Positions 15,617-63,668 of a stretch of DNA of 64,000 nucleotides are shown here, in pieces (position 1 is the first letter of the stretch; every line of letters starts with the position of its first letter). Below the pieces are notes generated by a model that saw nothing but the letters and a program-made list of their open reading frames with translations, was not told where the DNA came from and searched no databases. This DNA is from Myxococcota bacterium (GTDB lineage: Bacteria; Myxococcota_A; JAVEVO01). The position numbers and the translations under genes were made by a program. The stretch lies in contig JAVEVO010000003.1 in NCBI GenBank assembly GCA_034005005.1, forward strand, positions 25,493 through 89,492. Reading direction: 5' to 3'.

Positions 15617-15620
15617 AGCC

Positions 15621-30972: not shown

Positions 30973-31186
30973 GCGAGCCTCTCCACGGAGCGACGGTCTC
31001 CGCCCGACCCAGTGTTCCACGGTCGGGTGGTCGGCTGCAAGAGGTTGCCGGCGGCTGGCCCCCCGGTGTGAGGCGGATCGTGCCTCGGCCTTGAAAGGGA
31101 GGTCGGGCGCGTGGTATCTCGGGGGAGGAGGCCGGTGTGGCGCTCCCCGGCAAAGAGGATCCGTGAGCCCAGCTCCTGCCCGCACC

Positions 31187-32914
<1,728 letters not shown>

Positions 32915-41933: not shown

Positions 41934-42047
41934 CCCAGCCGTCTCCTCGATGATGCGGGGCGATTCTAAGAGAAGCCGGCGACGAGGTCAATTCGCTGGG
42001 CGCCGCTCGAGCTGGCTCGCGCGCCGCTTCTTCCCTACAATACACCC

Positions 42048-44114
42048 ATGATTGACCCCCGGCGATCACCTGCTCGGCTGCTCTGCTCCCTCCTGCTCGG
42101 GATCGGTGGGTGCACGGACGGCTGCGAGGGCCAGGGCGCCGGGGCGGGTGACCTCGCGGCCGCGGAGTGCCTCCGGGACGGAGACTGCCCCGAGGGCGCC
42201 GCGTGCGTGGACGGCCGCTGCACCTTGCTCTTCCTCCCCGACGGCGGGGAGGCCCTCCCCGACGGCGGTCTGGTGGACGCGGCCGGCGCGGCCGGCGACG
42301 GCGCCCGCCCCCTCGACGGGCCGGAACGGGATGGGGCGGCCACCGCCCCGCCCCTCGACCAGGACGGCGACGAGGTGCCCGACGTCCTGGACCTCTGCCC
42401 CACGGTGGCCGATCCCGCGCAGCGTGACGAGGACCAGGACGGCGTCGGGGACCTCTGCGACCTCTGCCCCGCGGTCCCCGATCACCTCCAGCGGGACCTG
42501 GACGGCGATCGGGTGGGCGACGGCTGCGACCGTTGCCCCCGCAGCCCGGGCCCGGGCACGGCCGACGGCTGCCCGCCCGATGCCGGCCCCTGGCTGGACG
42601 GCGACGGCGACGGGATCCCCGACGTCGACGACAACTGCCCGGTGAGCGACAACCCCGACCAGCGGGACACCGACGGGGACGGAGTCGGCAACCGCTGCGA
42701 CAACTGCCCGGCCCTCGCCAACTGGGACCAGGAGGACCGGGAGGGGGATGGCAAGGGCGACCGCTGCCAGACCTTCACGGGCTGGGACCGGGACGGCGAT
42801 CGGCTCCCCGACGACCGGGATCGCTGCCCCGAGGTCTGGGACCCGCAGCAGGGGGACGGCGACGCCGACGGGGTCGGCGACGCCTGCGACGTCTGCCCCA
42901 CGGTGGCCGACGCCGCGCAGGCCGACGCGGACGGGGACCGGATCGGGGACCGCTGCGATCCCGCGCGGCGCGACACGGACGGCGACGGGGTGCGGGATCG
43001 GGACGACCTCTGCCCGACCCTGGCCGCCTCCGGGCTGGAGAGCGACCTCGACGGGGACCGGATCGGGGATCGCTGCGATCCCCAGCGGTTCTTCGGGGAC
43101 ACGGACGGGGACGGCTTCGTCGACCTCGTCGATCCCTGCCCCACGGTCCCCGATCCCCCGGGGACCGCGCTGGCCGTGCGCATCTCGCCGAAGTGCCCGG
43201 GGGGGCCGGGGATCGATCGGGACCGCGACGGGCTCCCCGATGCCGTCGACACGTGTCCCCACCTCGCCAACCCCACCAACCACGACGGGGACGGGGATGG
43301 GTGGGGCGACCTGTGCGATCCCTGCCCCCTGCTGGGCCCGCGCTCGGCCGCGGACCCGCCCTGGGGGAGCTGCGCCGGCGACCTCGACGGCGACCTCCTG
43401 CCCGATGGGGCGGATCCTTGCCCCCTGGTGCCCGGCACCTTCGGCTGCGTCGACGATCGGGATGGGGACGGCTTGCCCGATGCGGTCGACCCTTGCCCCT
43501 TCTTGCCCTCGGCCGCGGACGTCGATCCCTGCCTCTCCGACGGGGACGGGGATGGGGTGGGCTTGTTCCAGGACAACTGCCCCGCCCTCGCCAATCCCGA
43601 TCAGCAGGATACGGACGGGGACGGGATCGGTGATCTCTGTGACCTCTGTCCCTTCGTCGCCCAGCATCCTGGTACGATCGTCTCTCCGTGCCTCGACGAC
43701 CAGGACGGCGACGGCCGCCCCGACGGGCTGGACCGCTGTCCGGCCGTGCCCGATCCGCTGCAGGGCGACCTCGACCACGATGGGGTGGGTGACCTCTGCG
43801 ACAACTGCCTGCTCGTCGCCAACGCCACCCAGGAGGACGTCGCGGGGGACGGGGTCGGCGACCGCTGCCAGGACGATTTCGACGGGGACGAGGTCGACGA
43901 TGGGCGCGACAACTGCATCCAGGTCGCCAACCCGGGCCAGGAGGACCGGGACGGGGACGGGACCGGCGACCGCTGCCAGGAGGATGCGGACGGCGACGGC
44001 ATCGGGGACTTCTGGGACCTCTGTCCTGGTCTCCCGGACCCCCTGCAGCTCGACCTCGACGGGGACGGGGTCGGCGACGCCTGCGCGCCTCCCCCGTTTC
44101 GCCGATCGCCCTGA
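42048..44114 (+). CDS. secreted thrombospondin type-3 repeat (calcium-binding) protein
   Basis: Signal peptide. About 25 repeats of DxDxDGxxDxxDxCP (for example DQDGDEVPDVLDLCP, DEDQDGVGDLCDLCP). Confidence 0.8.
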   Translation: MIDPRRSPARLLCSLLLGIGGCTDGCEGQGAGAGDLAAAECLRDGDCPEGAACVDGRCTLLFLPDGGEALPDGGLVDAAGAAGDGARPLDGPERDGAATAPPLDQDGDEVPDVLDLCPTVADPAQRDEDQDGVGDLCDLCPAVPDHLQRDLDGDRVGDGCDRCPRSPGPGTADGCPPDAGPWLDGDGDGIPDVDDNCPVSDNPDQRDTDGDGVGNRCDNCPALANWDQEDREGDGKGDRCQTFTGWDRDGDRLPDDRDRCPEVWDPQQGDGDADGVGDACDVCPTVADAAQADADGDRIGDRCDPARRDTDGDGVRDRDDLCPTLAASGLESDLDGDRIGDRCDPQRFFGDTDGDGFVDLVDPCPTVPDPPGTALAVRISPKCPGGPGIDRDRDGLPDAVDTCPHLANPTNHDGDGDGWGDLCDPCPLLGPRSAADPPWGSCAGDLDGDLLPDGADPCPLVPGTFGCVDDRDGDGLPDAVDPCPFLPSAADVDPCLSDGDGDGVGLFQDNCPALANPDQQDTDGDGIGDLCDLCPFVAQHPGTIVSPCLDDQDGDGRPDGLDRCPAVPDPLQGDLDHDGVGDLCDNCLLVANATQEDVAGDGVGDRCQDDFDGDEVDDGRDNCIQVANPGQEDRDGDGTGDRCQEDADGDGIGDFWDLCPGLPDPLQLDLDGDGVGDACAPPPFRRSP

Positions 44115-44413: not shown

Positions 44414-44464
44414 GCCGCGGCCGGCCGGCCTCGCGCCGGCCCCTCCCTTGACGGTCGCCTCGGG

Positions 44465-44989
44465 ATGGGCTCGCTCGGAAACCAGTGGGGGTGGCAGCAG
44501 TGGCTGCTCTACGGTGGGCTGCTCGCGGCCGCCCTGCAGGATCTGTCCTGGCGACGGATCCCCAACTGGTTCTCCCTCCCTTTCCTCGCCGTCGGCCTCG
44601 TGGTCCAGGGGCTCACGGGCGGCGGCCGGGGTCTCCTCGTCGGCTTGCTCGGGGCCGCGGTCGGTCTGCTGCTGCTCTTGTTGCCCTTTTCCCTCCGGCT
44701 GCTCCGGGGAGGTGACGTGAAGCTGCTGGCCGCGATGGGGGCCTGGCTCGGCCCGCTGCCCGTCCTGGTGGCCACCCTGGTCGGGGCCGTCCTCGCCGGA
44801 GTGCTCGTCGCCGGGCTGCTGGTGGGCCGGCCGGCCTTGCGCCGGGAGGTCGTCGCCAACCTCCGGGGGCTCGTGCTGGGGCTCGGTCTGCCCCGGCCAC
44901 CCGTGCGCCCACCCCACCTCGCGGTCCCCCTGGGGACGGCCCTGGCTGCCGGTGGGGTGCTGACCCACCTCTTCGGCTGGGGGAGCTGA
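44465..44989 (+). CDS. cpaA: prepilin peptidase CpaA/TadV (A24 family)
   Basis: Polytopic membrane protein with DLSWRRIPN and GGDVKLLAAMGAWLG motifs. Lies directly downstream of flp. Confidence 0.75.
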   Translation: MGSLGNQWGWQQWLLYGGLLAAALQDLSWRRIPNWFSLPFLAVGLVVQGLTGGGRGLLVGLLGAAVGLLLLLLPFSLRLLRGGDVKLLAAMGAWLGPLPVLVATLVGAVLAGVLVAGLLVGRPALRREVVANLRGLVLGLGLPRPPVRPPHLAVPLGTALAAGGVLTHLFGWGS

Positions 44990-45447
44990 TGCCTCTGCCC
45001 GACACCCAAGGAGTCCCGCCGGTCCGGCGCTGGCGCTGGCCGTTGCGTGCCCGGACGCGGGGCGGGGCCGCGCTCGAGTTCATGCTCGTCTTGCCCATCG
45101 TCCTGCTGGTGCTGGTGGGGATGCTCGCCCTGAGCAACTTCCTCTCCACCCGCTACTTCCTCACCGCCAGCGCGATCCACGCCGCCCGGGTCTGCACCGT
45201 CGCCCGGATGACCAACCGGCCCTGCGCCGAGGCGGCCGTCAACCAGTACCTGCAGGGCCCGATCCGCAACCGCTGCGCGGCCCTGACGACGACCGCCGCG
45301 GTCACCCGCCTGCCCGGTACTTCGGTTGACGTCTTCGCGGTGAACGTGCAATGTACCTACAGCGTGGACATGGGCGGCACGCTCCTGACGAACCAGGGCA
45401 TCCAGCTCACGACCCTGCAGGGCAAGGGGAGTATGCCCGTCCAGTAG
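44989..45447 (+). CDS. tadE: TadE-like pilus assembly protein
   Basis: ATG overlaps the cpaA stop (TGATG). TadE-like N-terminal motif GGAALEFMLVLPIVLLVLVGM. Confidence 0.65.
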   Translation: MPLPDTQGVPPVRRWRWPLRARTRGGAALEFMLVLPIVLLVLVGMLALSNFLSTRYFLTASAIHAARVCTVARMTNRPCAEAAVNQYLQGPIRNRCAALTTTAAVTRLPGTSVDVFAVNVQCTYSVDMGGTLLTNQGIQLTTLQGKGSMPVQ

Positions 45448-45541
45448 GCCCCCGGCACGGTGATCCTCTGCGAGCTGTTCGGGCGCGATCCCCGTTCGTG
45501 TCGGTGATGAATGACGATATCCGTGGTGAGGTGAGATCGTC

Positions 45542-46426
45542 GTGGCGCAAGAAAAGGGTTCTTCCGGCATCGGAGTCCTCGTCTTCACGATCCTGGCTCT
45601 GCTGTTCACCGGTATTACCGCATGGCTGCTCGCCATGATGCTATCCGGGACCCAATACACCAAAGAACCGGTCAAGAATGTGGTCGTCGCCAAGGTGAAC
45701 ATCAGTCCGCTCACGCCGATCACCGAAGAAAACCTCAAGATCGTCAAGATGCCCGAGTCCTCCGTCCCGGCCAATCACTTCACCGACATCAAGGAGCTGG
45801 CGGTGGATCCCCCCTTCCTGCCGGCGGTCCAGCTCTACCCGGGCGAGGTGATCCTCCGGGAGAAGCTCGCGGATCCGAAGAGCGGGCGCGGGCTCTCCGT
45901 GCTGATCCCGCCGGGGATGCGGGCGATGGTCGTCCGGCTGGAGGACGCCGCGGTGCAGGCGCGGCTGTTCTACCCCGAGGCGACGGTGGACGTCATCGCC
46001 ACCGTCCGGCTGATCAAGGAGAGCACCGTGGTCAGCAAGATCATCGTCCAGAACGTGAGGGTGCTCGCCGTGGGGACCACGGTCGATCCCTCGCGCATGG
46101 CCGAGCCCGCGGGCGCCTCCGGTGGGCTCGGGAACAAGACCGAGGAGAAGGACTCCGTGGTCACCCTGCTGGTCACGCCCTTGCAGGCCGAGCAGTTGAT
46201 GCTCGCCCAGCGCGAGGGCAAGCTGGACCTGGTGCTGCGCAACCAGCAGGACGTCGAGGCGACCTCCTCCATGGGCGCCGAGCCCGAGGACCTCTTCCCC
46301 GAGCTCACCACCGGGGAGACCGAGGACAAGGACCGCGAGCGTCGGGAATCGGTCCAGCGCATCCTCAGCTCGCCGCGCTTCAAGAGAGACGGTGCGCCCG
46401 CGGGCGGCGGGATCCAGATCCAATGA
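45542..46426 (+). CDS. cpaB: Flp pilus assembly protein CpaB/RcpC
   Basis: GTG start. N-terminal TM helix, then a SAF/BON-like region (VVVAKVNISPLTPITEENLKIVKMP). The C-terminus (VTLLVTPLQAEQLMLAQREGKLDLVLR) is typical of CpaB. Confidence 0.75.
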   Translation: MAQEKGSSGIGVLVFTILALLFTGITAWLLAMMLSGTQYTKEPVKNVVVAKVNISPLTPITEENLKIVKMPESSVPANHFTDIKELAVDPPFLPAVQLYPGEVILREKLADPKSGRGLSVLIPPGMRAMVVRLEDAAVQARLFYPEATVDVIATVRLIKESTVVSKIIVQNVRVLAVGTTVDPSRMAEPAGASGGLGNKTEEKDSVVTLLVTPLQAEQLMLAQREGKLDLVLRNQQDVEATSSMGAEPEDLFPELTTGETEDKDRERRESVQRILSSPRFKRDGAPAGGGIQIQ

Positions 46427-46521
46427 CCGCCCCTGGCCTCCGGAGCCCCGAGGCGCCTCGGGTGCCTCGCTCCGTCCACGGCTCGCCGGCGCGGGCGAGC
46501 AGACCGTCGAGAGAGGGAGTC

Positions 46522-47934
46522 ATGAAGAAGCTGGGCTGTCGGGCGGTGCTGGCGCTGGTCCTCCTGCTGGGGCTCGCTGGCTCCCCGCCGGGCTGGGCGG
46601 CCGAGGGGGTCGTCCAGGTGCCCCTCGGCGGCGTCAAGCAGATCGCCTACCAGGCGCCGATCCTCCGGCTGTCCGTGGGCAACCCCGAGCTGGTCGAGGT
46701 CTCCTCCGTGTCCGGGAGTAGTACTGAAGTCCTGCTCAAGGGGCGGCAGATCGGCTCGACCAGCCTCGCGGTCTGGGGACGCGACGGCGGGCAGGCCTCC
46801 TTCGTCGTGCAGGTGGTCGCGGACGTCGACGCGCTCGGCAGCGCGATCAAGGACCTCTTCCCGGGGGAGCAGGTCGCGGTCCAGGTCGCGGGCGAGACGC
46901 TCCTGTTGAAGGGCACCGTCTCGGGGCCCGAGGCCTTGCAGGCCGTCTCCGACTGGGCCGAGGGCTACCGCTCCGGCCTGGGCAAGGAGGGGACCCGCCT
47001 GCGGGTGCTCAACCGCTTGCAGCTCGCGACCCCCCAGCAGGTGCAGCTCGAGGTGCGCTTCGCCGAGGTCTCCCGCACCTCCCTGCGGCGGCTCGGCCTC
47101 TCCCTGCTCGGCCACAAGGACGGCAACACCATGGGCGTCTTCTCCAGCACGGAGGAGTTCGGCATCCGCCCGAGCGGCGCGTTCAACGACACCCTGCCCC
47201 TGCCCGTGCCCTTCACCGAGGCGGCGAAGCTGGTCTTCATCACCAAGCCCGACGCCAGCTTCCCCTTCAGCGCGGTGCTCTCGGCCCTGTCCGCCAACGG
47301 CGTGGCCAAGACCCTGTCCGAGCCGACGCTGGTCGCGCTCTCCGGTCAGCAGGCGAGCCTGCTGGTGGGCGGGGAGCAGCCGTACCTCGTGCCCCTCGGC
47401 TCCCAGGGGCAGTACACGATGGAGTGGAAGACGTACGGCATCCAGCTCGACTTCCTGCCCATGGTGCTCGCGGACCAGACCATCCAGCTCAAGGTCAACA
47501 GCGTCGTCTCGGACCTCGACAAGTCCAACGCGATCAACCTGGCCGGGGTCGCGGTCGCGCCCCTGACCACCCGCTCCAGCAGCACCACGGTGCGGCTGCG
47601 CTCGGGGCAGGGCTTCGCGATCGCCGGCATGCTCTCCGACCGCCTGCGCAGCACCGTCGCCAAGGTGCCCCTGCTCGGCGACATCCCGATCATCGGGATG
47701 CTCTTCCGCACCACCCAGTCCCAGCGCGAGGAGACCGAGCTGGTGGTCGTCGTCACCGCCCGCCTGGTCCAGCCCGTGGACGGTGGCGAGCTCGGTCCCT
47801 TGCCCGGCGAGAGCGACCTGGCCGACCCCAACGGGGTGCAGCTCTTCCTCATGGGCTGGGGCGAGGTCGAGCCGAAGAAGGCGACCAGCGGGACCGGGCG
47901 TGGCCGGCCGGCTGGCCGGGGCGGCTATCGGTAA
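46522..47934 (+). CDS. cpaC: Flp pilus secretin CpaC/RcpA
   Basis: ATG 46522 after GAGAGGGAG. Signal peptide. The secretin C-terminal domain (LSEPTLVALSGQQASLLVGGEQPY, VPLLGDIPIIGMLFR) matches. The 45622.. track ORF is a read-through. Confidence 0.85.
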   Translation: MKKLGCRAVLALVLLLGLAGSPPGWAAEGVVQVPLGGVKQIAYQAPILRLSVGNPELVEVSSVSGSSTEVLLKGRQIGSTSLAVWGRDGGQASFVVQVVADVDALGSAIKDLFPGEQVAVQVAGETLLLKGTVSGPEALQAVSDWAEGYRSGLGKEGTRLRVLNRLQLATPQQVQLEVRFAEVSRTSLRRLGLSLLGHKDGNTMGVFSSTEEFGIRPSGAFNDTLPLPVPFTEAAKLVFITKPDASFPFSAVLSALSANGVAKTLSEPTLVALSGQQASLLVGGEQPYLVPLGSQGQYTMEWKTYGIQLDFLPMVLADQTIQLKVNSVVSDLDKSNAINLAGVAVAPLTTRSSSTTVRLRSGQGFAIAGMLSDRLRSTVAKVPLLGDIPIIGMLFRTTQSQREETELVVVVTARLVQPVDGGELGPLPGESDLADPNGVQLFLMGWGEVEPKKATSGTGRGRPAGRGGYR

Positions 47935-47940
47935 GACGGG

Positions 47941-49194
47941 GTGACGCTCGCCGGGGCTGCCCCGGGAGCCAGGGAGGTCGAGACGGTGACCGGAAGGGGA
48001 CCGCAACGAGACGGAGGGCCGGTCTTCACGGGCAGCCCTCTCGCCCCGCCGCCGGACAGCTACCAGGACCCGCGAGATCACTCGCAGTTCCACACCATCA
48101 TCCGCCGGATCACCGGCGAGGAGAGCTACGAGGGCCCCAAGCCACCCTTGCCGCCCGGACCCCGTCCGCCCTCGCCGAAGGTCCACGTCGGCGGGGGGCC
48201 CGCGCCCCCGGCGCCGCCCTCCTTCCCGGCCCCGGGCTTCGCGCCACCGCCGCCGCCGGTGAACGTCCCGGCGCCGCCGGGGTTCTCTAGTCCTTTCGTC
48301 TCGGCGCCGGCCATGGGCGTCCCAGCCGCCGGCGTCTCCCCCTTCATCGAGCAGCCGGCCGAGCCGGCCGCCCCCGCCGCGGCCGCCCCCGAGGCGGCAC
48401 GCCACGGTCGCCTGGTGGCCCTGTTCGGCTGCAAGGGCGGCGTCGGCAACACCTTCGTCGCGATCAACCTCGCGGCCGCGCTCGCCCGCACCGCCAACGT
48501 CTGCCTGGTCGACATGGACCTGCAGATGGGCGACATCCTCACGAGCCTGAACCTCGAGGGGCGCTGCGCGGTCTCCCACCTGATCCGGGAGGTGCGCACC
48601 GGCGGCGAGACCTTCAATCCCCGCACCGTGCTCGACCGTCACGAGGGGAGCGGCGTCTACGTCCTGTCCCAGGTGCACTGCCTCGAGGAGCTCGACCTGC
48701 TCAAGCCGAGCGAGCTGGTCAACCTGTTCGGCTTCCTCAAGACCCGCTTCCCCTACACGATCATCGACGGGCTGCGCGGCTTCGACGACAACTCCATGGT
48801 CCTGCTCGACGCGGCGGACATCATCTTGCTGGTCGTCAGCCAGGACGTGCCCTCCGTGCGGGCCGCGAGCCGGAGCATGGAGATCTTCCGGCGCATCGGC
48901 TACGACCCGGACAAGGTGCGCATCGTCGTCAATCGATACTACAAAAAGGCTCTGGTCACGCCGAGTTACATCGGTATGTCCCTGAAGACGCCCCACGTCG
49001 AGCTGGTCCGGCGCGACTTCCCCCTCGCGCTCAAGTCGCTCAACGAGGGGATCCCCCTGCACCTGATGGCGCCGCAGAGCAAGATCGCCCTCGATATCGA
49101 CAAGCTCGCCGACGCCTTGCGGGATCGGGACGGCCGGGCCGCGGCAGCCGAGCAGCCGGGCGGCCTGCTGCAGAAGCTCAGGTTCTGGAAGTAG
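47941..49194 (+). CDS. cpaE: CpaE/TadZ-like pilus assembly ATPase (MinD/ParA family) with Pro-rich N-terminus
   Basis: Deviant Walker A (LFGCKGGVGNTFVAINLAAAL) and MinD-like body. GTG start. Confidence 0.75.
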   Translation: MTLAGAAPGAREVETVTGRGPQRDGGPVFTGSPLAPPPDSYQDPRDHSQFHTIIRRITGEESYEGPKPPLPPGPRPPSPKVHVGGGPAPPAPPSFPAPGFAPPPPPVNVPAPPGFSSPFVSAPAMGVPAAGVSPFIEQPAEPAAPAAAAPEAARHGRLVALFGCKGGVGNTFVAINLAAALARTANVCLVDMDLQMGDILTSLNLEGRCAVSHLIREVRTGGETFNPRTVLDRHEGSGVYVLSQVHCLEELDLLKPSELVNLFGFLKTRFPYTIIDGLRGFDDNSMVLLDAADIILLVVSQDVPSVRAASRSMEIFRRIGYDPDKVRIVVNRYYKKALVTPSYIGMSLKTPHVELVRRDFPLALKSLNEGIPLHLMAPQSKIALDIDKLADALRDRDGRAAAAEQPGGLLQKLRFWK

Positions 49195-49196
49195 CC

Positions 49197-50504
49197 ATGA
49201 AGTTCACCGAGCGATACCAGCAAGGGGTCGAGAGCGGCGCTGGCGTCAAGGGCGGGCGCTCCCTCGAGGACATCAAGCGCGACCTGCACGGCAAGGTCAT
49301 CGACCGGATCGACGTCTCGGCGATCCAGAACATGAGCCGCGAGCAGCTCCGCACCCAGTTGCGCGGCGTCGTCGAGCAGCTCGTGGCCATGGAGCAGCTC
49401 CCGCTGAACCAGGCCGAGAAAGAGAAGATCGTCGTCTCCCTGCTCGACGACATCCTCGGGCTGGGGCCCCTGGAGATCCTGCTCGCCGATCCCGACGTCA
49501 GCGACGTGCTGGTCAACAACCACAAGTCGGTCTACGTCGAGAAGAAGGGGCGGCTGCAGCTCACCAGCGTGCGGTTCCGCGACGACCGCCAGCTCCTCAA
49601 CGTCATCAACCGCATCGTCAGCCGGATCGGCCGCCGCATCGACGAGTCCTCGCCCATGGTCGACGCACGGCTGCCCGACGGCTCCCGGGTCAACGCGATC
49701 ATCCCGCCCCTGGCCATCGACGGCCCGGTCCTCTCCATCCGCCGGTTCGGCTCCAACCCCTTGCGCCACGACGACCTCGTCCGCAACGGCAGCATCTCGC
49801 CGGCCATGATCAGCTACCTCCACGCCGCGGTGGCGGCGAAGAGCAACGTGCTGATCTCGGGGGGGACCGGGTCGGGCAAGACGACCCTGCTGAACATCCT
49901 CGCGAGCTTCATCCCGGTCGAGGAGCGGATCGTCACCATCGAGGACTCCGCCGAGCTGAAGCTGCAGCAGGAGCACGTCGTCCGGCTCGAGTCGCGGCCG
50001 CCCAACATCGAGGGGCGGGGCGCGGTGACGATCCACGACCTGGTGAAGAACTCCCTGCGGATGCGGCCCGACCGCATCGTCGTCGGCGAGATCCGGAGCG
50101 TCGAGGTGCTCGACATGCTCCAGGCCATGAACACCGGCCACGAGGGGTCCATGGCGACGATCCACGCCAACTCCTCGGCCGATGCCATGTCCCGGCTGAT
50201 GACGATGATCGCCATGGCCGGCACCAAGCTCTCCGAGGAGAGCATGGTCCAGATCATCGGCCGGGCCATCCACCTGGTGGTCCAGCTCAACCGGATGACC
50301 GACGGCGGCCGGCGGGTGGTCAGCATCTCCGAGGTCCTCGGCTTCGAGGGAGCCACGGTCCACACCCAGGACGTCTTCCTCTTCGAGCAGACCGGCTTCG
50401 ATCCCCAGGGGCGGATCCTCGGGGCGTACGTCAACCGGATCCCGTCGGCCATGGGGGCCCGGTTCCGCAAGTTCGGCGTCAACCCCGGGATCCCGGTGAG
50501 GTAG
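49197..50504 (+). CDS. cpaF: CpaF/TadA type IV pilus assembly ATPase
   Basis: Walker A ([14 protein letters not shown]), [10 protein letters not shown] and His box ([13 protein letters not shown]). Confidence 0.9.
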
Positions 50505-50508
50505 CGCC

Positions 50509-51468
50509 ATGGCTCCCTGGTTCATCCTCGCGGCGAGCCTCACCTGCTTCTTCGTCCTGATGACGGGGTATCTGCTCTGGCGACGGCGCAAGCTGAGGCT
50601 GGAGCACCTCGTCCGGGAGCGGCTGGCCATCGAGCGCTCCCACCCCGGGGCGGGAGCCGGCACTCTGATGCAGGAGGACCGTCGGCGCATCGCGGTCATC
50701 GACCGCCTGCTCCAGGAGACGGGCACCCAGCAGCGGCTGCAGGACCTCCTCGACCAGGCGGGCGAGCCGACCTCCCCGGGCAGCTTCGTGCTGCGCTCCT
50801 TGCTCTGGGGCCTGGGACCGGCCCTGGTCCTCGGCACCTTGACCCTCAGCCCGGGGGTCGCCCTGCTCTGCTGCCTCGGCGGGCTGCTCCCCCTCGTCCT
50901 GCTCCTGCAGCGGCGCGGCAAGCGGATGCAGAAGATCGACGCGCAGCTCCCCGTGGCCCTCGAGATCATGACCATCTCCCTGCGGGCCGGCCACTCCCTG
51001 GCGCAGACCATCGAGCTGTCGGCCAACGAGCTGCAGGCTCCCCTCGGCGACGAGCTGCGTCGCGCCGCGGAGGAGCACCGCCTGGGCCGCTCCCTGGAAG
51101 AGGTCCTGGTGAGCATGAGCCGCCGGCTCCCCGGCTGTCGGGCCCTGCGGACCTTCGTCGTCGCGGTGCTGGTGCTGCAGCAGACGGGCGGCAACCTCAT
51201 CGAGATCATCGAGAAGATCATCGAGACCTTGCGGATGCAGACCCAGTACGAGCGCAAGCTCGGCGCGATGACCGCCGAGGGCAAGAGCTCGGCGCGCATG
51301 CTCTCCGGGCTGCCCCTGGCCTTCATCGCCCTGGCGTATCTGGCCGATCCGGGCTACATCGGGATGCTCTTCACCGACCCCATCGGCCAGAAGCTGCTCA
51401 TCGTCAGCGTCACCCTCTGGTGCGTCGGGATCCTCTGGACCCGCAAGCTGATCAGCCCGGCCTCGTAG
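50509..51468 (+). CDS. tadB: TadB (T2SS-F-like inner membrane platform protein)
   Basis: GspF-like domain with TM segments. Sits in the tadB position after cpaF. Confidence 0.75.
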
Positions 51469-51483
51469 CAGGAGGAGGACTCG

Positions 51484-52398
51484 GTGCTCGCGACCTTGCT
51501 GCCCGTGCTGTTGCTCTTCTCCGGGCTCCTGACCGCCGCCGCGGTGGTCTTCGCGGTCCGGGGCTTCTTCCGCCTCCGCGCGCAGCGTCGGCCCGCCCCC
51601 GCCCCCCTGCCGGCCGACCTCGGCGGCTTCGAGGGTGCGGGCGCCCCGTCCTCCGCGCTCGCCCGGCGGCTGTTGCCCCTGGCCCGGCGCCTGCGCCCCC
51701 AGAACGAGGCCGAGCTGGCCGGGCTCCGGTTGAAGCTCGCCCAGGCCGGCCTGGCCGCGCAGGGCGCGGTCGATCAGTTCGTGCTCATCCAGTTGCTCTC
51801 CCTGTTCGCCGCCGGCCTGCTCGCCGTGCCCTGGTTCCTGATCGGCGAGCCGGGCCTGCTGCTCATCGGGCTGGCCGCCTGCGCCGCGGTTGGCTTCCTG
51901 CTGCCCCGGTTCTGGCTGTCCTTGCGCATCTCCAGCCGCCGGGAGCAGATCGGCGGCTCCCTCGCCTCGACCCTCGACCTGCTGGTGACCTGCATGGAGG
52001 CCGGGCTCGGGCTGGAGCAGGCCCTCGACCGGGTGGCCACGGAGCTGCAGCTCTCCGAGCGGGCGATGGCCGAGGAGCTCTTGCTGACCATCAACGAGAT
52101 GCGGGCCGGCATCCCCACGGCCGAGGCGTTCCGCAAGCTCTCCGCCCGGGTCGGGCTGGAAGAGATGCACATGCTCTGCTCGGTGATCATCCAGTCCTCG
52201 ACCCTCGGCGCGAGCATCGGCCAGATGCTGCGGCAGTACGCGGCGTCCTGGCGCCAGCAGCGGATGATGGACCTCGAGGAGAAGGCCGGGAAGATGACCG
52301 CCGCGCTCACCCTGCCCCTGACCCTCTGCCTGCTCCCCTCGGCGATCCTGGCGATGCTCGGGCCGGCGGTCATCGTCGTCATGCAGAACCTGGGCTAG
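51484..52398 (+). CDS. tadC: TadC (T2SS-F-like inner membrane platform protein)
   Basis: Second GspF-like paralogue, with a GTG start. Confidence 0.7.
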   Translation: MLATLLPVLLLFSGLLTAAAVVFAVRGFFRLRAQRRPAPAPLPADLGGFEGAGAPSSALARRLLPLARRLRPQNEAELAGLRLKLAQAGLAAQGAVDQFVLIQLLSLFAAGLLAVPWFLIGEPGLLLIGLAACAAVGFLLPRFWLSLRISSRREQIGGSLASTLDLLVTCMEAGLGLEQALDRVATELQLSERAMAEELLLTINEMRAGIPTAEAFRKLSARVGLEEMHMLCSVIIQSSTLGASIGQMLRQYAASWRQQRMMDLEEKAGKMTAALTLPLTLCLLPSAILAMLGPAVIVVMQNLG

Positions 52399-53283
52399 GT
52401 GCAGACCCTGGGGCCGAACCTGCCGCGGTGGCTGCTCGGGCTCGGCCTGCTGGTCGCGAGCTGCGCGCCGCTCGATCCGGCCCAGCGCGCGGACGGCCTG
52501 CCCCCGGAGACGGAGCCCAACAGCGTCCGGCTCGAGCTGGCGCACCACATGATCCAGGCGGGCAGCTACGACAACGCGGTCCCCCTGCTGCAGCGCGTCC
52601 TCCTCGACGAGCCGGGCAGCGCCCTGGCGCACTATTACCTCGGTTGCATCCTCGCGGCCCGGGATCAGCTCGCCGCGGCCGAGCAGGAGCTGACCGTCGC
52701 GCTCGGCCTGCGCGCCGACCTCGCGCCGGCCATGGACCGGCTCGCCACGGTGCTCGGCCGGGCCGGGCGGTACCCCGAGGCCCTGGACTGGCACCACCGG
52801 GCCGTCGCGGCGCAGCCGGGCAGCGCCGCGTTCCAGAACAACCTGGCGTACACGCTGCTGCTCGCCGGACGGGGCGACGAGGCCGTCCTGGCGTTCCAGC
52901 GAGCGGTGATCCTCGATCCGGCCGACAAGTCGACCTACAATAACCTCGGGTTCGCGCTCGGCCGGCTGGGCCGGTACGCGGAGGCCCGGCGGGCGTTCGT
53001 GCAGGCCGGGGGGGAGCCCCTGGCCCTGGTGAACCTGGGCGTCGTCTACGAGCACGCGGGCCGGGACGACGAGGCCCGCCAGAGCTACCAGGAGGCCCTG
53101 CAGCTCGCCCCGGGGCTCTCCCTGGCGCAGCGCAACCTGCGGGCCCTGGACGAGCGGCTCGGGGCCGCGGCACCCGCCAAGGAGCCGCCCCGCGCCCCGG
53201 CCACCACCGCCGAGCCGCCCGCCGTGCCGGCGAGCACGGATGTCGCGGGGGAGAGGCCCGCACCAGCGAAGGAGTCGCCATGA
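52399..53283 (+). CDS. tadD: TPR-repeat lipoprotein, TadD-like
   Basis: Lipobox LLVASC. TPR units. Sits in the tadD position. Confidence 0.6.
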   Translation: MQTLGPNLPRWLLGLGLLVASCAPLDPAQRADGLPPETEPNSVRLELAHHMIQAGSYDNAVPLLQRVLLDEPGSALAHYYLGCILAARDQLAAAEQELTVALGLRADLAPAMDRLATVLGRAGRYPEALDWHHRAVAAQPGSAAFQNNLAYTLLLAGRGDEAVLAFQRAVILDPADKSTYNNLGFALGRLGRYAEARRAFVQAGGEPLALVNLGVVYEHAGRDDEARQSYQEALQLAPGLSLAQRNLRALDERLGAAAPAKEPPRAPATTAEPPAVPASTDVAGERPAPAKESP

Positions 53284-53621
53284 GAGACCTCGGCCTGTTG
53301 ATCCTCGTCCCGCTCCTGCTGCTGCTCGGGGGCTGCACGCCGCGCGCCCACCTCGGCGACTCGGCGGGCAAGTCCCTCAAGGCGATGCAAGAGGTCCAGC
53401 GGGCGTCCCTGGAGCAGGGCAAGGCCCCCGCCCCCCTCGGGAGCCAGGAGGTCCTGCGGATCAACGAGCGTTACCTCACCAGCTTCTCGCCGCCCAGCCA
53501 GGGGGGCGGCAGCACCAGCATCGGCGGGGGCGCGAACCCGGCCTTCGACTTCGCCTCCCTGATGGGCGGCGGCGCGGGCGGGGGCGGGGGCGAGAAGCAG
53601 ATCACCCTGAGCGGCGAGTGA
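53280..53621 (+). CDS. small lipoprotein, hypothetical (Tad-locus associated)
   Basis: ATGA overlap with tadD. Lipobox LLLGGC. Gly-rich C-terminus. Confidence 0.45.
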   Translation: MRDLGLLILVPLLLLLGGCTPRAHLGDSAGKSLKAMQEVQRASLEQGKAPAPLGSQEVLRINERYLTSFSPPSQGGGSTSIGGGANPAFDFASLMGGGAGGGGGEKQITLSGE

Positions 53622-53645
53622 GCGCCGCCTAGGTCGGAGGCGAGC

Positions 53646-54935
53646 ATGGTCGGGACACCGCTCTGGTCCCTTGGTACCAAACGACCGGGCTGGCACCGGC
53701 AGCGAGGCGCGACCTCGATCATCGTCGTCGTCTTCCTCTCCCTGATCATCTCGGCCATGGCGCTGGCCTGGTTCGTGGGCCGGGCCGCGGTGCACAAGCA
53801 CGAGGTGCAGACCGCGGCCGACTCCGTCGCCCAGAGCGCCGCCCTGGTGCTGCAGCGGGACGGCATGGGCTTCGCCAACCGGATCGAGACCTACCGCCCG
53901 GCGTGGGAGGGCAACACCATCAGCCAGCTCCCCACCTTGCCGGCGCTCGACATGCGCTACGACGCGGCCACGAAGCTGCTGAACATCACCGCCACCGTCG
54001 ACCGCCCCCTGCAGGCCCAGGTGCCTGGTCTCGGGCAGCCGCCGGGGCTGCGGGTGCGCGGCGTGTCCCAGGTGCAGGTCCACCAGGAGGAGCTGACCGA
54101 CGTCAACCGCAACATCCCCAAGCTCGTGCTCGTGCTGGACTACTCCGGCTCCATGGACGCCAGCTTCGGGGGCGGGCAGACCCGCCTGCAGGCCCTGCGC
54201 TCGGCGGTCAACACCCTGCTCGACATGAACCTCGAGATCCACTACGGCCTGGTGCTCTACAGCGACGACGTCCTGGGCACGGTGGCGGTCTCCGACAACA
54301 GCGTCGCGGCGATCCGCGGCGCGATCGGTCGCGGCTCCGCCAACATGACCTGCAGCTCCTGCGGCCTGAACCGGGCGGGTGAGCTCTTGCGGGCCACGGA
54401 CGTGAAGGGGCGCCACGTGCTGATCGTCTCCGACGGTCTGCCCAACAACGGCGGCGGCACCGGCGGCATGACCACCGCGGCCGACCGGCTGCGGATGAAC
54501 GACGACACCACCGTGCTCTCCCTGGAGATCAAGTCCACCGGCGCCGGGCTCGAGGCGGTCATGAAGCGGGTCGCCGGTCCCAAGGGCGACCCCGACGGCA
54601 ACGATCCCGGGCACTACTTCGCGGCCAGCAACTCCGCGGCCCTGCGCGACACCTTCCGCGAGATCGTCGCCAACATCCTCTGCACCGCCGGCCCCCTCGC
54701 GCCCGCGCCGGTCCGGCAGCCCGACGGCTCCTATCTCATCTACACCTTCCTGCGGGACGCCGGCGGCGCCGAGTCGCCGGTCCACGACCAGCACGGCGTC
54801 TCCAACCCCCGGGCCGCCTCCTACGACCAGGCGACCCAGATGCTGCGCATCCCCTACGCACCCGACTGCGAGAAGATCCTCGACCGCGCCGCCTCCCTGG
54901 TGGTCCGGTACGATCAGCCCGCCTTCTCCCACTGA
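53646..54935 (+). CDS. tadG: TadG-like pseudopilin/anchor with von Willebrand factor A domain
   Basis: N-terminal TadE/G-like TM motif ([22 protein letters not shown]). vWA MIDAS motif ([12 protein letters not shown] ... SDG). Confidence 0.65.
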
Positions 54936-55060
54936 GCCCGCCCGCGCGGTGGTCGCCCTCCGGGTCGCGGCCGGGCTCGGCGCGCGGTGGGGGCTCGACC
55001 CGCCTCCCCAGACGGCGTAGACTGGAGCCGATCCGGCCACGCGCGCTGCGGGCCGACGAG

Positions 55061-55477
55061 GTGGGCATGGGCTACCGCAACCCCGTCCCGACGGTTGACG
55101 TCATCATCCGCTGTCCCGCAGGGATCGTGCTGATCCGGCGCAAGAACCCCCCGCTGGGCTGGGCCTTGCCCGGTGGCTTCGTCGACTACGGGGAGTCCCT
55201 CGAGGACGCCGCCCGCCGGGAGGCGGCCGAGGAGACCGGGCTGGCGGTGACCCTCCAGGAGCAGCTCCACACCTACTCGGATCCGACCCGTGACCCCCGG
55301 CAGCACACCATCAGCACCGTCTTCCTCGCGATGGCCGCAGGCGAGCCGGTGGGCCAGGACGATGCGGCCGAGGCCCGGGTCTTTCCCCTCGAGGAGCTGC
55401 CGGCCGAGCTCTGCTTCGATCACGGGACGATCCTCGACGACTACCAGCGCTACCTTGCACGCGGAGGGCGACCATGA
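55061..55477 (+). CDS. NUDIX hydrolase
   Basis: Nudix box ([24 protein letters not shown]). Confidence 0.7.
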
Positions 55478-56073
55478 GCGCGGCGATGCTGACCGAGCCG
55501 GAGCAGGAGGTCCTGCTCCGCTGGGCGCGAGAGGTGCTGGAAGGCCTGCTGCACGAGGGCGAGACGCCCGCGCTGGAGGGGCGGCGCTTTCCGCCGGCGC
55601 TGGTGCAGCCTGCTGGTGCTTTCGTCACCCTGCACCTCGGCGGCGAGCTGCGGGGCTGCATCGGCACCTTCTCCGCGGACCGCCCCCTGGTGGAGATCGT
55701 GCGGGAGATGGCCGTCGCCGCGGCGACCCAGGACCCCCGCTTCCGTCCCGTCCCCCGGGGGGAGCTGCCCCTGATCCAGCTCGAGATCTCGGTCCTCTCC
55801 CCCCGCTGGCCGAGCCGGGACCCCCTCGCCGAGCTCGAGATCGGCGTGCACGGGATCTACCTGACCCGGGGGTGGCACCGCGGCGTGCTGCTGCCCCAGG
55901 TCGCGTCCGAGCAGGGCTGGGATGCCGAGACCTTCCTCGCCCACACCTGCCGCAAGGCCGGGCTCGACGACGAGCAGGCCTGGCGCGCGCCCGACACCCG
56001 CATCGAGCTGTTCACCGCCCAGGTCTTCGGCGAGCCCGCGCGGCCGGACCCGGCCGGAGGAGGGGCGGTGTGA
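55474..56073 (+). CDS. AMMECR1 domain protein
   Basis: ATGA overlap with the NUDIX gene. Conserved LRGCIGTF and [12 protein letters not shown] motifs. Confidence 0.75.
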
Positions 56074-59000
56074 CGTCGCCGACGAGCTGCCGGCCCCGTG
56101 GGTTGCGCTGGTCAGGGGGATGGACCGGCGGGCTGCTGCTGCTCGGAGTGCTGGTCGCGTGCTCCCCGGCGGCGCGGGAGCGAGACGCCGGTCCCGAGAC
56201 GCCCCCGGATGCCAGCGTCGACGCCGGGCCGGAGGACGCCGGGCCGGAGGACCTGGGGCTGGGGCCCGATGGCTGCCGGCCGGTCGCCGAGCGCTGCAAC
56301 GGGCTCGACGACGATTGCGACGGCTACACCGACGAGGACTTCCTGCTGGCGCGCGACCCCCAGCACTGTGGCGCGTGCGACCACCGCTGCCAGTACGGCA
56401 ACGGCGCGGGGGGCTGCCGGGACTCCCTCTGCTACCTCGCCCGCTGCACCCCCGGCTACGCGAACCTCGACGGCCGGGAGGACAACGGCTGCGAGAGCCG
56501 CTGCACCCTCTCCAACGGCGGCATCGAGATCTGCGACGGTCAGGACAACGACTGCAACGGCCTCGTCGACGACGGCTACGACCTCGTCGGTGATCCGGCC
56601 AACTGCGGCGAGTGCGGCCACCGCTGCAGCCTGCGTCATGCGGAGGCGGTCTGTCGGGGCGGCGAGTGCCGGATCGGCCGCTGCGATCCGAGCTGGTACG
56701 ACGAGGACGACGACCCCCTGACCGGCTGCGAGGCCACCTGCGCGCAGAGCAACGGGGGCGTGGAGGGCTGCGACGGGGAGGACAACGACTGCGACGGCCG
56801 GACCGACGAGGACTTCGATCTCCGGGACGATCCGGAGCACTGCGGCCGCTGCGGGCGGGTCTGCAGCTTCCCCAACGCCGTCCCCCGCTGCCTCGAGGGG
56901 GAGTGCGTCATCGATCGCTGCCTCGAGGGCTGGTCCGACGACGGCGTGCCCGAGGACGGGTGCGAGACCCCCTGCGTGCTCTCCAACGGCGGCGTCGAGA
57001 TCTGCGACGACCGGGACAACGACTGCGACGGGACCACCGACGACGGCTTCGACCTCGCGACCAACGTCGACCACTGCGGCCAGTGCGGGCGGGAGTGCCG
57101 GATCCCCAACGGGGTCGCGGTCTGCGTCGACTCCGAGTGCCTCGTGGGGACCTGCGAGGCCGGGTACATCGACGGGGACGGGCGCTACGACAACGGCTGC
57201 GAGACCCCCTGCGTGCCGGACGTCGACCCCTACGAGCTCTGCGACGGCCGGGACAACGACTGCGACGGCCAGACCGACGAGCTGTACGACCTGCAGCAGG
57301 ACCCGCTGCACTGCGGGGGGTGCGAGCGACCGTGCCGGTTCGCCAACGCGGTCGCGGGGTGCCGTCTCGGGGGGTGCGTCATCGAGCGCTGCGAGGAGGG
57401 CTTCGCCGACATCGATCGGCGGCGTGACAACGGCTGCGAGGCCCTCTGTCAGGTCACCAACGGGGGCCTCGAAGGCTGCGACGAGGTCGACAACGACTGC
57501 AACGGCATCGTCGACGACGGCTACGACCTCAACCGGGATCCCGACAACTGCGGCCAGTGCGACCGGGTCTGCCCCGCGGTGCCCCGGGCGACGCGCGCCT
57601 GCCTCGGGGGCGAGTGCGCGGTGGGCGAGTGCGCGGCCGGGTGGGTCGATGCGGACCTGCGGGTCGACACCGGCTGCGAGTACCCGTGCCTGCCGACCAA
57701 CGACGGGGTCGAGATCTGCGACGAGCGGGACAACGACTGCGACGGGACCGTCGACGAGGGCTTCGACAAGCAGCACGGCCTCGAGCACTGCGGCGGCTGC
57801 GATCGGCCCTGCGCCCCGGCCAACGCCCTGCCCGTGTGCGACGAGGGCGTCTGCCGGATCGCCCAGTGCGACGACGGCTGGTACGACGCGCAAAACGGCG
57901 TCAGCGACGGCTGCGAGCTGGCGTGCCGGGTCAGCGAGGGCGGCATCGAGCTCTGCGACGACCGCGACAACGACTGCAACGGCGTCGTCGACGACGGCTT
58001 CGACAAGCTCACCGACGAGGCGAACTGCGGCGTCTGCGGCAACTCCTGCCTGCAGCCGCACCGCCGCGTCGCGTGCGTCCAGGGGAACTGCCGGCAGTAC
58101 GATTGCATCACCGGCTGGGTCGACCAGAACCAGGACGCCGCGGACGGCTGCGAGTACGCCTGTGTCCTCACGGGCGAGGAGGTCTGCGACTGGCAGGACA
58201 ACGACTGCGACGGCGAGACCGACGAGGGGTTCGACCTGCTCACGAGCCTCGACCACTGCGGGCAGTGCCAGCGGAGCTGCCGCTATCCGAGCACGGTCAC
58301 CCGGTGCCAGGAGGGCCAGTGCCTCGTGCTCGGCTGCGAGCCCGGCTTCTGGAACGCGGACCGCCGGCTCGCCAACGGGTGCGAGTACTTCTGCGGGGTC
58401 AGCGAGGGGGGCGAGGAGATCTGCGACGGCCGGGACAACGACTGCAACGGCACCATCGACGACGGCTTCGACCTGCAGAACGATCCCCGCAACTGCGGGC
58501 AGTGCGGGCGCCGGTGCGATCTCGCCGGGGCCACCGCGTTCTGCCTGGCCGGGGAGTGCGCGGTCCAGCGCTGCGACGAGGGCCGGCGGGACGTCAACGA
58601 GGACCCGGCCGATGGCTGCGAGTGCACCCTCACCAACGGCGGGGTCGAGATCTGCGACGGTCGGGACAACGACTGCAGCGGCGTCATCGACGACAACCTC
58701 GGCCTGCCGCCCATCGCCTGCCTGCGCCTCGGCGTCTGCGCCGGGGTCCTGCCCCGTTGCGACGGCCTCGCCGGCTGGACCTGCCCCTATCCGGCGAGCT
58801 ACCAGGCGCAGGAGGCGCGCTGCGACGACCTCGACAACGACTGCGACGGGCAGGTCGACGAGGAGTTCCCAGCCAAGGGGGCGCCCTGCGGCGATGGGGT
58901 CGGGGTCTGTCGGGGCGAGGGTCGGCTGCGCTGCGACGAGCTGACCGAGGACGCGCTCCTCTGTCCCGCCACGGCCCACCCGGAGCGCCAGACCGCCGAG

Positions 59001-59657
59001 AGCTGCGACGGCCTCGACAACGACTGCGATGGCGAGACGGACGAAGGGACCGACGAGCTGGTCCAGATCGGCGATCTGCTCGTCTACAAGTACGAGGCTT
59101 CACGCACCGATGGGACCGAAGTCCTGCAGGGCGGCTCCTTCGCCCGGGCCTGCTCCGTCGCGGGTCGGCTCCCCTGGACCGGGGTCGACTGGGACACGGC
59201 CCGGCTGGCCTGCGCGCGCGCCGAGGGCGCGTACCTCTGCCGCGAGGCCGAGTGGCAGGGGGTCTGTGCGGGCGAGGCGGGCTGGCTGTACCCCTACGAC
59301 GCGGACGAGTACCAGGCCGGCGCCTGCAACGGGCTCGACCAGGGTGCGGGCCGCGTCCTGCCCACCGGCAGCCTCCCGGGCTGCGTCACCCCGAGCGGGG
59401 TCGCCGACCTCTCGGGCAACGTCTGGGAGTGGGTCGACGTCGACAAGTCCGCGGCCGGGGACGGCTCCATCCGGGCGTTTCTCGGCGGCGGCTACGGCAA
59501 CGTGGCCCTGGGCCTGAGCTGCACCTTCGACGTGGCCGCGGATCCCGGCACCGCCCGCGACAACATCGGCTTTCGCTGCTGCACCGACATCCAGTGCCAG
59601 GAGGTGCGCTGCGCGGCGGGGCAGTACTGCCGGCGGGGGGTGTGCCACGATCTCTGA
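56070..59657 (+). CDS. giant lipoprotein with ~16 MopE-type putative metal-binding repeats (CDGxDNDCDGxxDE) and C-terminal FGE-sulfatase (formylglycine-generating-enzyme-like) domain
   Basis: GTG overlaps the AMMECR1 stop (GTGA). Lipobox LLGVLVACS. Repeats such as ICDGQDNDCNGLVDDG are visible. The C-terminus (YEASRTDG...GSFARAC..RLPWTGVDWDTARLACA..GAYLCREAEWQGVC...GNVWEWVD...FRCC) is characteristic of the FGE-sulfatase/SUMF1 fold. Confidence 0.75.
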   Translation: MTSPTSCRPRGLRWSGGWTGGLLLLGVLVACSPAARERDAGPETPPDASVDAGPEDAGPEDLGLGPDGCRPVAERCNGLDDDCDGYTDEDFLLARDPQHCGACDHRCQYGNGAGGCRDSLCYLARCTPGYANLDGREDNGCESRCTLSNGGIEICDGQDNDCNGLVDDGYDLVGDPANCGECGHRCSLRHAEAVCRGGECRIGRCDPSWYDEDDDPLTGCEATCAQSNGGVEGCDGEDNDCDGRTDEDFDLRDDPEHCGRCGRVCSFPNAVPRCLEGECVIDRCLEGWSDDGVPEDGCETPCVLSNGGVEICDDRDNDCDGTTDDGFDLATNVDHCGQCGRECRIPNGVAVCVDSECLVGTCEAGYIDGDGRYDNGCETPCVPDVDPYELCDGRDNDCDGQTDELYDLQQDPLHCGGCERPCRFANAVAGCRLGGCVIERCEEGFADIDRRRDNGCEALCQVTNGGLEGCDEVDNDCNGIVDDGYDLNRDPDNCGQCDRVCPAVPRATRACLGGECAVGECAAGWVDADLRVDTGCEYPCLPTNDGVEICDERDNDCDGTVDEGFDKQHGLEHCGGCDRPCAPANALPVCDEGVCRIAQCDDGWYDAQNGVSDGCELACRVSEGGIELCDDRDNDCNGVVDDGFDKLTDEANCGVCGNSCLQPHRRVACVQGNCRQYDCITGWVDQNQDAADGCEYACVLTGEEVCDWQDNDCDGETDEGFDLLTSLDHCGQCQRSCRYPSTVTRCQEGQCLVLGCEPGFWNADRRLANGCEYFCGVSEGGEEICDGRDNDCNGTIDDGFDLQNDPRNCGQCGRRCDLAGATAFCLAGECAVQRCDEGRRDVNEDPADGCECTLTNGGVEICDGRDNDCSGVIDDNLGLPPIACLRLGVCAGVLPRCDGLAGWTCPYPASYQAQEARCDDLDNDCDGQVDEEFPAKGAPCGDGVGVCRGEGRLRCDELTEDALLCPATAHPERQTAESCDGLDNDCDGETDEGTDELVQIGDLLVYKYEASRTDGTEVLQGGSFARACSVAGRLPWTGVDWDTARLACARAEGAYLCREAEWQGVCAGEAGWLYPYDADEYQAGACNGLDQGAGRVLPTGSLPGCVTPSGVADLSGNVWEWVDVDKSAAGDGSIRAFLGGGYGNVALGLSCTFDVAADPGTARDNIGFRCCTDIQCQEVRCAAGQYCRRGVCHDL

Positions 59658-59717: not shown

Positions 59718-63668
<3,951 letters not shown>

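Follow-up and report, generated by a model that had tools for sequence, protein, structure and literature searches.

The Nudix–AMMECR1–lipoprotein locus

We analyzed a 64,000-nucleotide (nt) stretch of DNA from a Myxococcota bacterium (assembly GCA_034005005.1, contig JAVEVO010000003.1, positions 25,493 to 89,492; hereafter, the window), focusing on a locus at window positions 55061–59657 which encodes a Nudix hydrolase, an AMMECR1 protein, and a giant lipoprotein with MopE-type repeats and a C-terminal domain resembling the formylglycine-generating enzyme (FGE). The G+C content of the window is ∼72% and its mechanical list of open reading frames (ORFs) is crowded with shadow frames; gene calling with a filter on ORFs for G+C at third codon positions (GC3) leaves three same-strand genes in 55061–59657, and every gene from 44414 to 59657 lies on the plus strand. 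The three are the Nudix hydrolase gene (55067–55477; 136 amino acids, aa), the gene of a stand-alone AMMECR1 protein (55474–56073; 199 aa), and the lipoprotein gene (56070–59657; 1195 aa). The ORFs and domain matches bear out a first-pass annotation of this DNA, which had placed these genes at these positions, and the hidden Markov models (HMMs) that it had suggested searching with (PF01871 for AMMECR1, and PF03781 and PF11617 for the lipoprotein) all match the predicted proteins. All three genes are already generically annotated in the public record.

The genes overlap at both of their junctions. At the first (55463–55477, plus strand), the ATG of AMMECR1 overlaps the TGA of the Nudix gene in an ATGA at 55474, and at the second (56059–56073, plus strand), the GTG of the lipoprotein gene overlaps the TGA of AMMECR1 in a GTGA at 56070. 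Each of the two starts is preceded by a Shine-Dalgarno sequence, GGAGG (55463–55467 and 56059–56063, respectively), with a spacer of 6 nt. The GGAGG spacing, the junctions in orthologous loci, and the N-termini of the orthologs make it credible that the overlapping codons are the true starts, as had been proposed. In this region, consensus scans detected no promoter or terminator and Rfam gave no match, the promoter scan being uninformative at 72% G+C. Judging from the junctions, the three genes are probably co-transcribed as a real operon restricted to one lineage.

The Nudix protein matches PF00293 (E 2.4e-26) and carries the complete Nudix box GX5EX7REUXEEXGU, read from the sequence, which places it in the superfamily. 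Its start is likelier to be the ATG at 55067 than the alternative GTG at 55061 because the 136-aa product is identical to the deposited MDY0058418.1 from a Myxococcota metagenome-assembled genome (MAG). The closest solved relative is the Nudix domain protein of Aquifex aeolicus (PDB 2yyh; E 6e-33 over the whole length), which is similar in size (139 aa) and differs in that the deposited structure is labelled as an ‘8-oxo-dGTPase domain’; we know of no substrate data for it. Orthologs of the Nudix protein are widespread (Myxococcaceae, Desulfobacterales, and others; 65–78% identical). Neither the Nudix nor the AMMECR1 protein has a signal peptide, and their compartment should therefore differ from that of the lipoprotein. 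A defence-system reading was rejected, PADLOC giving just a weak generic Nudix match. Separately, the conserved Nudix gene lies near a MopE/FG-GAP protein gene in L171 (1–137), on a contig labelled ‘Alphaproteobacteria’, a label that may stem from erroneous binning or classification.

Conservation of AMMECR1 extends from archaea to humans, and our literature search found no paper assigning it a biochemical function. The window protein matches PF01871 (E 3e-54) and scores 179.5 bits against a cutoff of 99 with TIGR04335 (‘AmmeMemoRadiSam system protein A’), which is also its name in the Prokaryotic Genome Annotation Pipeline (PGAP). Its relatives of known structure are PDB 1zq7, 1vaj, and 1wsc. 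It has intact RGCIG (with Cys62) and DPRF motifs; among 23 relatives, G61, C62, I63, G64, and D87–F90 are invariant and R60 is kept in at least 90%. These two motifs have been proposed as the active site (Balaji and Aravind, PMC2034487), and the protein has been predicted, via its conserved cysteine, to take part in an uncharacterized modification of RNA or nucleotides (PMC2034487, PMC4075521), the basis of the prediction being the link of AMMECR1 to Memo and a radical SAM enzyme (PMC2034487). Thus, the window protein is a TIGR04335 member with both motifs, whereas the other two hallmarks of the AmmeMemoRadiSam system are missing from its locus: a Memo HMM derived from fusions that Pfam had confirmed matched neither the six-frame translation of the 64-kb window nor any Nudix-linked locus, and an HMM of the dedicated radical SAM protein matched neither the window (six frames) nor the loci with the triad or the pair. 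The radical SAM gene found in one related locus (L001) is of another type (Radical_SAM_N2, 493 aa).

The GTG start of the lipoprotein gene is supported because the N-termini of the orthologs align with it (MTSPTS vs. MVSPEV/MASPKA) and all carry a lipobox. In the window protein, the lipoprotein signal peptide (56070–56162, plus strand) ends in LLLLGVLVAC, in which L-V-A-C with Cys31 fits the lipobox pattern [LVI][ASTVI][GAS]C, as read by eye in the translation; the lipobox stands at the same place in all four orthologs. The long middle part of the protein matches PF11617 (E 6e-47). By our repeat map, it holds 13 MopE-type cores (CDGxDNDCDG; 56295–59048, plus strand) rather than the roughly 16 counted in the first-pass annotation, arranged as ten units of 77–80 aa with 10 cysteines each, followed by three shorter ones. 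The nine aligned units are 35–58% identical to the first unit and conserve ten cysteines along with Asp, Asn, Glu, and Gly, with no invariant His or Met. Since Cys, Asp, Asn, and Glu are conserved and His and Met are not, the repeats are probably disulfide-rich and calcium-stabilized rather than a copper site. A model of one 79-aa unit was too uncertain to use (predicted local distance difference test, pLDDT, 67.8, and below 60 over the MopE half). The protein resembles the ‘putative metal-binding motif’ (MopE/PF11617) proteins of Myxococcota in its 13 cores and in having a second such protein encoded immediately downstream, and architectures joining MopE motifs to FGE and to sulfatase domains recur in its relatives. 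It differs from them in that the conserved residues of its repeats do not suggest copper, and its 77–80-aa unit (a MopE core plus an 8-Cys module) matches no NCBIfam model.

The C-terminal domain with its short Cys-rich tail (59049–59654, plus strand; ∼200 aa) can be described as a ‘mini-FGE’ domain of the pFGE type. Its PF03781 match (E 2.3e-11, residues 1030–1170) covers profile positions 87–253 of 255 and the N-terminal subdomain of canonical FGEs is missing, so the domain does not qualify as a full-length FGE. A profile of the domain and 40 homologs had its top match in pFGE/SUMF2 (1y4j; 1.7e-23, 30% identity), followed by CalU17, human and bacterial FGEs, ToxD, CotH/CarF, EgtB, and PorK. 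An AlphaFold2 model of the domain (pLDDT 95.8) gave Foldseek probabilities of 1.00 to FGE, pFGE, and EgtB with template-modelling (TM) scores of ∼0.6, which identifies the FGE fold; by E-value, CalU17 ranked first and pFGE second, and the tightest superposition was with pFGE 1y4j (root-mean-square deviation 1.9 Å over 157 columns, 30% identity). When aligned with human FGE, the domain shows neither of the catalytic Cu(I)-binding cysteines of FGE/SUMF1: the position of C336 is an Asn, invariant in all five orthologs, and C341 falls in a 3-residue deletion of the catalytic loop. The FGE-like domain of the first-pass annotation stands in respect of its fold, but it is truncated and without both catalytic cysteines. 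Its sequence indicates an FGE-fold module without the FGE active site, and it is not to be called an FGE because the catalytic cysteines are missing.

By analogy with pFGE or PorK/GldK, the head most likely binds a ligand rather than catalyzes. Like the window domain, the inactive FGE paralog pFGE/SUMF2 lacks the catalytic cysteine pair, and it is the best sequence match; the window domain differs from it in being shorter with no N-terminal subdomain, in carrying additional cysteines for disulfides and, behind GFRC, a CC pair, and in ending a 990-residue repeat stalk on a bacterial lipoprotein. PorK and GldK of the type IX secretion system (PDB 9mzu, 9p6h) are lipoproteins in which the FGE-fold domain is structural and not enzymatic, and they are among both the sequence and the fold matches, but the similarity is weak (E ∼1e-8, 18% identity), no type IX secretion genes are present here, and PorK has no repeat stalk. 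A protein search with the C-terminal domain returned short paralogs and not the giant orthologs. The homologs include many short FGE-sulfatase-domain proteins (labelled, e.g., ‘SUMF1/EgtB/PvdO family’), some with MopE motifs, and those with named taxa all come from Myxococcota or Deltaproteobacteria MAGs. A scan of metagenome contigs with the domain, which carries generic FGE motifs, gave among the matches listed only generic FGE domains (26–40% identity), none near AMMECR1 or Nudix genes, and it is silent on reciprocal linkage.

Conservation of the triad and of the Nudix–AMMECR1 pair

The triad of Nudix, AMMECR1, and MopE/FGE lipoprotein genes occurs in four further distinct loci of related Myxococcota (L001, L002/L003, L004/L005, and L007), whose AMMECR1 proteins are 58–65% identical to that of the window; these are its closest relatives with usable contigs, and all of them have the triad. 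The recurrence of the three genes that the first-pass annotation had asked about is thereby found, in one locus (L001) with different flanks as far as these were tested. Both junctions measure -4 to +5 nt in L001, L002, L004, and L007, the AMMECR1–lipoprotein gap staying within this range in the orthologous triad loci, and the caTGA overlap of Nudix and AMMECR1 is retained in L001, L002, L004, L006, L007, and L010. The lipoprotein orthologs range from 902 to 1195 aa with 7 to 13 cores, and their C-terminal domains are 56–61% identical. An HMM of this C-terminal domain matched the triad loci only and none of 80 other AMMECR1 loci. In L002, L004, L005, and L007, Tad pilus genes lie upstream of the triad in the same order as in the window. 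In L001, no Tad genes appear in the gene table and a tblastn search of two upstream neighbours against the window gave no match; the triad is consequently the sole shared block there. We rejected the Tad locus as part of the unit because L001 retains the triad without Tad genes. These comparisons mark the triad as a genuine conserved block, present in one clade only.

Beyond this clade, the Nudix–AMMECR1 pair alone is retained, in ten more loci and often with the ATGA overlap. It is found adjacent and without the lipoprotein in L006, L008, L172, L174, L010, L015, L020, L026, and L027. In the four of these nearest to the triad clade (L006, L008, L172, and L174; AMMECR1 57–60% identical), the pair is kept and the third gene has changed: the pair is followed by an aminotransferase gene in L006 and by a convergent TPR gene in L008, L172, and L174. 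L173 lacks the Nudix gene altogether. Eight of the nine closest AMMECR1 relatives with known context carry the Nudix gene.

For background, and not as a census of the triad, we compared a wider sample of 79 AMMECR1 loci drawn from the species genomes of GTDB (44–61% identical, among the matches listed), none of which comes from the triad clade. The neighbours were classified with HMMs built on Pfam-confirmed seeds, and ORF clustering was set aside since it was dominated by high-GC shadow ORFs. An orthologous Nudix gene (HMM E <1e-57) lies directly upstream of AMMECR1 in 5 of the 79 loci (L010, L015, L020, L026, and L027), and in a sixth (L013) it lies 7 kb away. Memo was found in 20 loci, mostly fused to AMMECR1 (8 of these also with the radical SAM gene), and 53 loci had none of the three. 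When the count was confined to loci flanked by 2 kb or more on both sides (n = 56), 36 had none of the three, 15 had Memo, and 5 had Nudix. AMMECR1 had been described as usually accompanied by Memo and a radical SAM protein, which holds for just 15 of these 56 well-flanked relatives. In the window, the Nudix gene occupies the upstream coupled place that Memo, fused or adjacent, holds in the 20 relatives. No locus had both Nudix and Memo vs. ∼1.5 expected, a difference that is not significant.

In the pair loci without the lipoprotein, AMMECR1 identities run from 45 to 60%, and G+C contents begin at 43% (L015) and reach the ∼73% of the window. In a rough neighbour-joining tree, AMMECR1 sequences with a linked Nudix gene occupy about five positions. 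Of 13 distinct loci with adjacent Nudix and AMMECR1 genes, 7 retain the ATGA overlap, the junctions of L172 and L174 lying outside this check. We conclude that Nudix and AMMECR1 genes pair up recurrently but in a minority of loci, and that neither gene is dedicated to the other.

Three of the pair loci also carry a gene for a 728–734-aa protein with MopE motifs and a sulfatase domain (PF00884), ∼2.5 kb from the pair and on the minus strand (L008 3062–5251, L172 86–2290, and L174 98–2284); a PfkB kinase gene and the gene of an unannotated 365–394-aa protein lie in between. In the triad clade, the place right after the pair is taken by a MopE protein whose fold is that of a sulfatase-modifying factor.

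Among the relatives with Memo, the Memo and AMMECR1 domains share one stop-free frame of ∼460–690 codons, suggesting fusions, in L022, L023, L024, L039, L049, L057, L064, L067, L071, L075, L079, L081, and L082. The fusion is Pfam-confirmed in L023 and L079; the frames run from stop to stop and are not called genes. The dedicated radical SAM gene often lies directly upstream of these candidate fusions. In L059, L052, and about nine other loci of the Desulfuromonadales/Geobacter type, a stand-alone AMMECR1 gene often has a MiaB-like methylthiotransferase ORF no more than 4 kb away (cluster 5, 11 loci; by eye). Other recurrent neighbours, judged by eye from representative sequences, appear to be RsmD-like, CoaD-like, and peptide-deformylase genes.

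Interpretation of the locus

On balance, and only slightly, we favor the explanation that, in no more than one clade, a cytoplasmic Nudix–AMMECR1 module shares its transcript with a surface lipoprotein that is not catalytic. The three genes would be read from one mRNA that either starts in the 131 nt that follow the TadG-like gene or arises by read-through from the Tad operon, with translation coupled at both overlaps. Such an operon would join two units that differ in age and in where they act in the cell. The first unit would be the cytoplasmic Nudix and AMMECR1 proteins, coupled by the ATGA and the sole part of the operon likely to share a biochemical task. Nudix enzymes cleave nucleoside-diphosphate-X compounds; because of this, and because AMMECR1 is predicted to act on RNA or nucleotides, we infer that the pair could handle a nucleoside-diphosphate-linked substrate or by-product. 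The second unit would be the lipoprotein, exported via Sec and acylated on Cys31; its probable place is the cell surface, where it could form a long, acidic, disulfide-rich stalk of 13 repeats carrying a compact, ligand-binding, pFGE-like head. It would probably work with the surface proteins encoded nearby, among them the MtsC-like cohesion protein, the VWA proteins, and those of the Tad pilus, and take no part in the chemistry of the pair.

Several observations weigh against this explanation. Just 6 of the 79 distant AMMECR1 loci have the Nudix gene, so that the pair could be inherited gene order, and in all three loci sampled from elsewhere (Archangium gephyra, Desulfoluna limicola, and a MAG; 65–72% identical), the Nudix ortholog stands away from AMMECR1. 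The preservation of the triad in L001 despite rearranged flanks, and a lipoprotein junction as tight as the Nudix–AMMECR1 junction, would also be compatible with a genuine functional link of the lipoprotein to AMMECR1. The MopE-sulfatase gene near the pair in sister loci hints at a possible sulfatase theme that our explanation leaves unexplained; its proximity may be coincidence because MopE motifs attach to several different secreted proteins in these loci. Finally, the head may carry out some other chemistry despite the loss of the FGE cysteine pair.

Pure synteny is an unlikely reading, and the one among the alternatives that we take most seriously. The three genes would then have no functional link, their order being inherited in related lineages and their overlaps being the ordinary compaction of a high-GC genome. 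The widespread Nudix family (65–78% identical) with its unrelated contexts in Archangium, Desulfoluna, and a MAG fits this reading, as do the many AMMECR1 relatives, the majority, that stand alone and the non-significant avoidance between Nudix and Memo (0 vs. ∼1.5 expected). Shared descent of gene order is, however, harder to reconcile with a pair that spans 43% to ∼73% G+C, 45–60% AMMECR1 identity, and about five separate tree positions, that keeps the ATGA overlap in 7 of 13 distinct adjacent loci, and that is present in 8 of the 9 closest relatives with known context.

We hold it doubtful that the Nudix–AMMECR1 pair is an undescribed two-gene AMMECR1 module, an alternative to the version with Memo and radical SAM, which in the triad clade is perhaps also tied to the pFGE-like lipoprotein. 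If it were, the coupled Nudix partner would point to a nucleoside-diphosphate-linked molecule as the substrate or product of AMMECR1. Our literature search found no paper linking AMMECR1 with a Nudix enzyme.

An improbable alternative is a pathway split between compartments, in which the cytoplasmic pair produces or processes a nucleotide-activated precursor (e.g., of a sulfated or glycosylated surface polymer) and the lipoprotein, itself no enzyme, binds or organizes the polymer through its pFGE-like head. The genes would then be tied to each other, which fits the survival of the triad as a block after rearrangement of the flanks and junctions of just -4 to +5 nt; the MopE-sulfatase near the pair in sister loci and the relation of pFGE-type domains to sulfatase-binding proteins would also find a place. 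The operon, however, contains no transporter, glycosyltransferase, or sulfotransferase gene, the third gene is swapped for unrelated genes in sister clades, and a nearby sulfatase could be chance given that MopE motifs occur on many different secreted proteins.

The proposal of the first-pass annotation, a single lineage-specific system for extracytoplasmic modification or redox chemistry made up of all three proteins, with the FGE-like domain oxidizing Cys/Ser or forming C-S bonds, the MopE repeats holding copper or another metal, and AMMECR1 adding a step, can draw on the co-conserved triad with tight junctions in five loci (one with different flanks), on the Pfam repeat name ‘Cu-binding_MopE’, and on the FGE-sulfatase match of the C-terminus, but is very improbable considering that none of the five orthologs has either catalytic cysteine of FGE and the top match is the inactive pFGE, that the FGE domain lacks its N-terminal third, that the repeats conserve no His or Met, that the Nudix and AMMECR1 proteins have no export signals, and that the lipoprotein is absent from every AMMECR1 locus examined outside one clade.

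The part of this locus worth following up is the pairing of Nudix with AMMECR1 and not a redox system. A recurrent coupled Nudix partner offers a cheap experimental handle on AMMECR1 because in vitro screens for Nudix substrates can be run in the presence and absence of AMMECR1. The lipoprotein is of local interest, adding to the surface proteins of Myxococcota which combine MopE-type repeats with non-catalytic heads of the FGE fold. The locus also emphasizes caution in annotation: the Pfam labels ‘FGE-sulfatase’ and ‘Cu-binding’ should not be taken for functions.

Surrounding genes of the window

The two cytoplasmic genes sit inside a block of cell-surface genes. Upstream of them is a complete Tad/Flp pilus locus (44414–54935, plus strand), comprising prepilin peptidase, RcpC, secretin, CpaE-like, CpaF, TadB, TadC, and TPR genes, a 113-aa ORF, and a TadG-like VWA gene. 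The short ORF (53280–53621, plus strand) is conserved at 113–116 aa and has no Pfam match. Just before the Tad locus lies a gene (41970–44114, plus strand) whose 714-aa product has thrombospondin type-3 repeats (PF02412, E 1.6e-81) and passes the NCBIfam model ‘cell-cell cohesion MYXO-CTERM protein MtsC’ with 384.5 bits against a cutoff of 350.

Downstream and convergent to the operon is the gene of a 1316-aa secreted protein (59718–63668, minus strand) with ten MopE cores (PF11617, E 1.4e-52). This protein has a VWA-like metal-ion-dependent adhesion site (MIDAS) motif (FDTSGSM), CxxxxC repeats, and a MYXO-CTERM-like tail; it matches no NCBIfam model, and its C-terminal part is 57.6% identical to the product of the convergent gene in L007.

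The remainder of the window (1–41987) has a content typical of myxobacteria. It holds a large TPR protein gene, two Ser/Thr kinase genes (15522–17861 and 30887–32914), a HAMP-SpoIIE phosphatase gene, and genes of the poly(A) polymerase/CCA-adding family, DAHP synthase, Maf, HD-domain, and PfkB proteins, together with several long ORFs that have no Pfam match (including 20265–22475 and 40239–41987).

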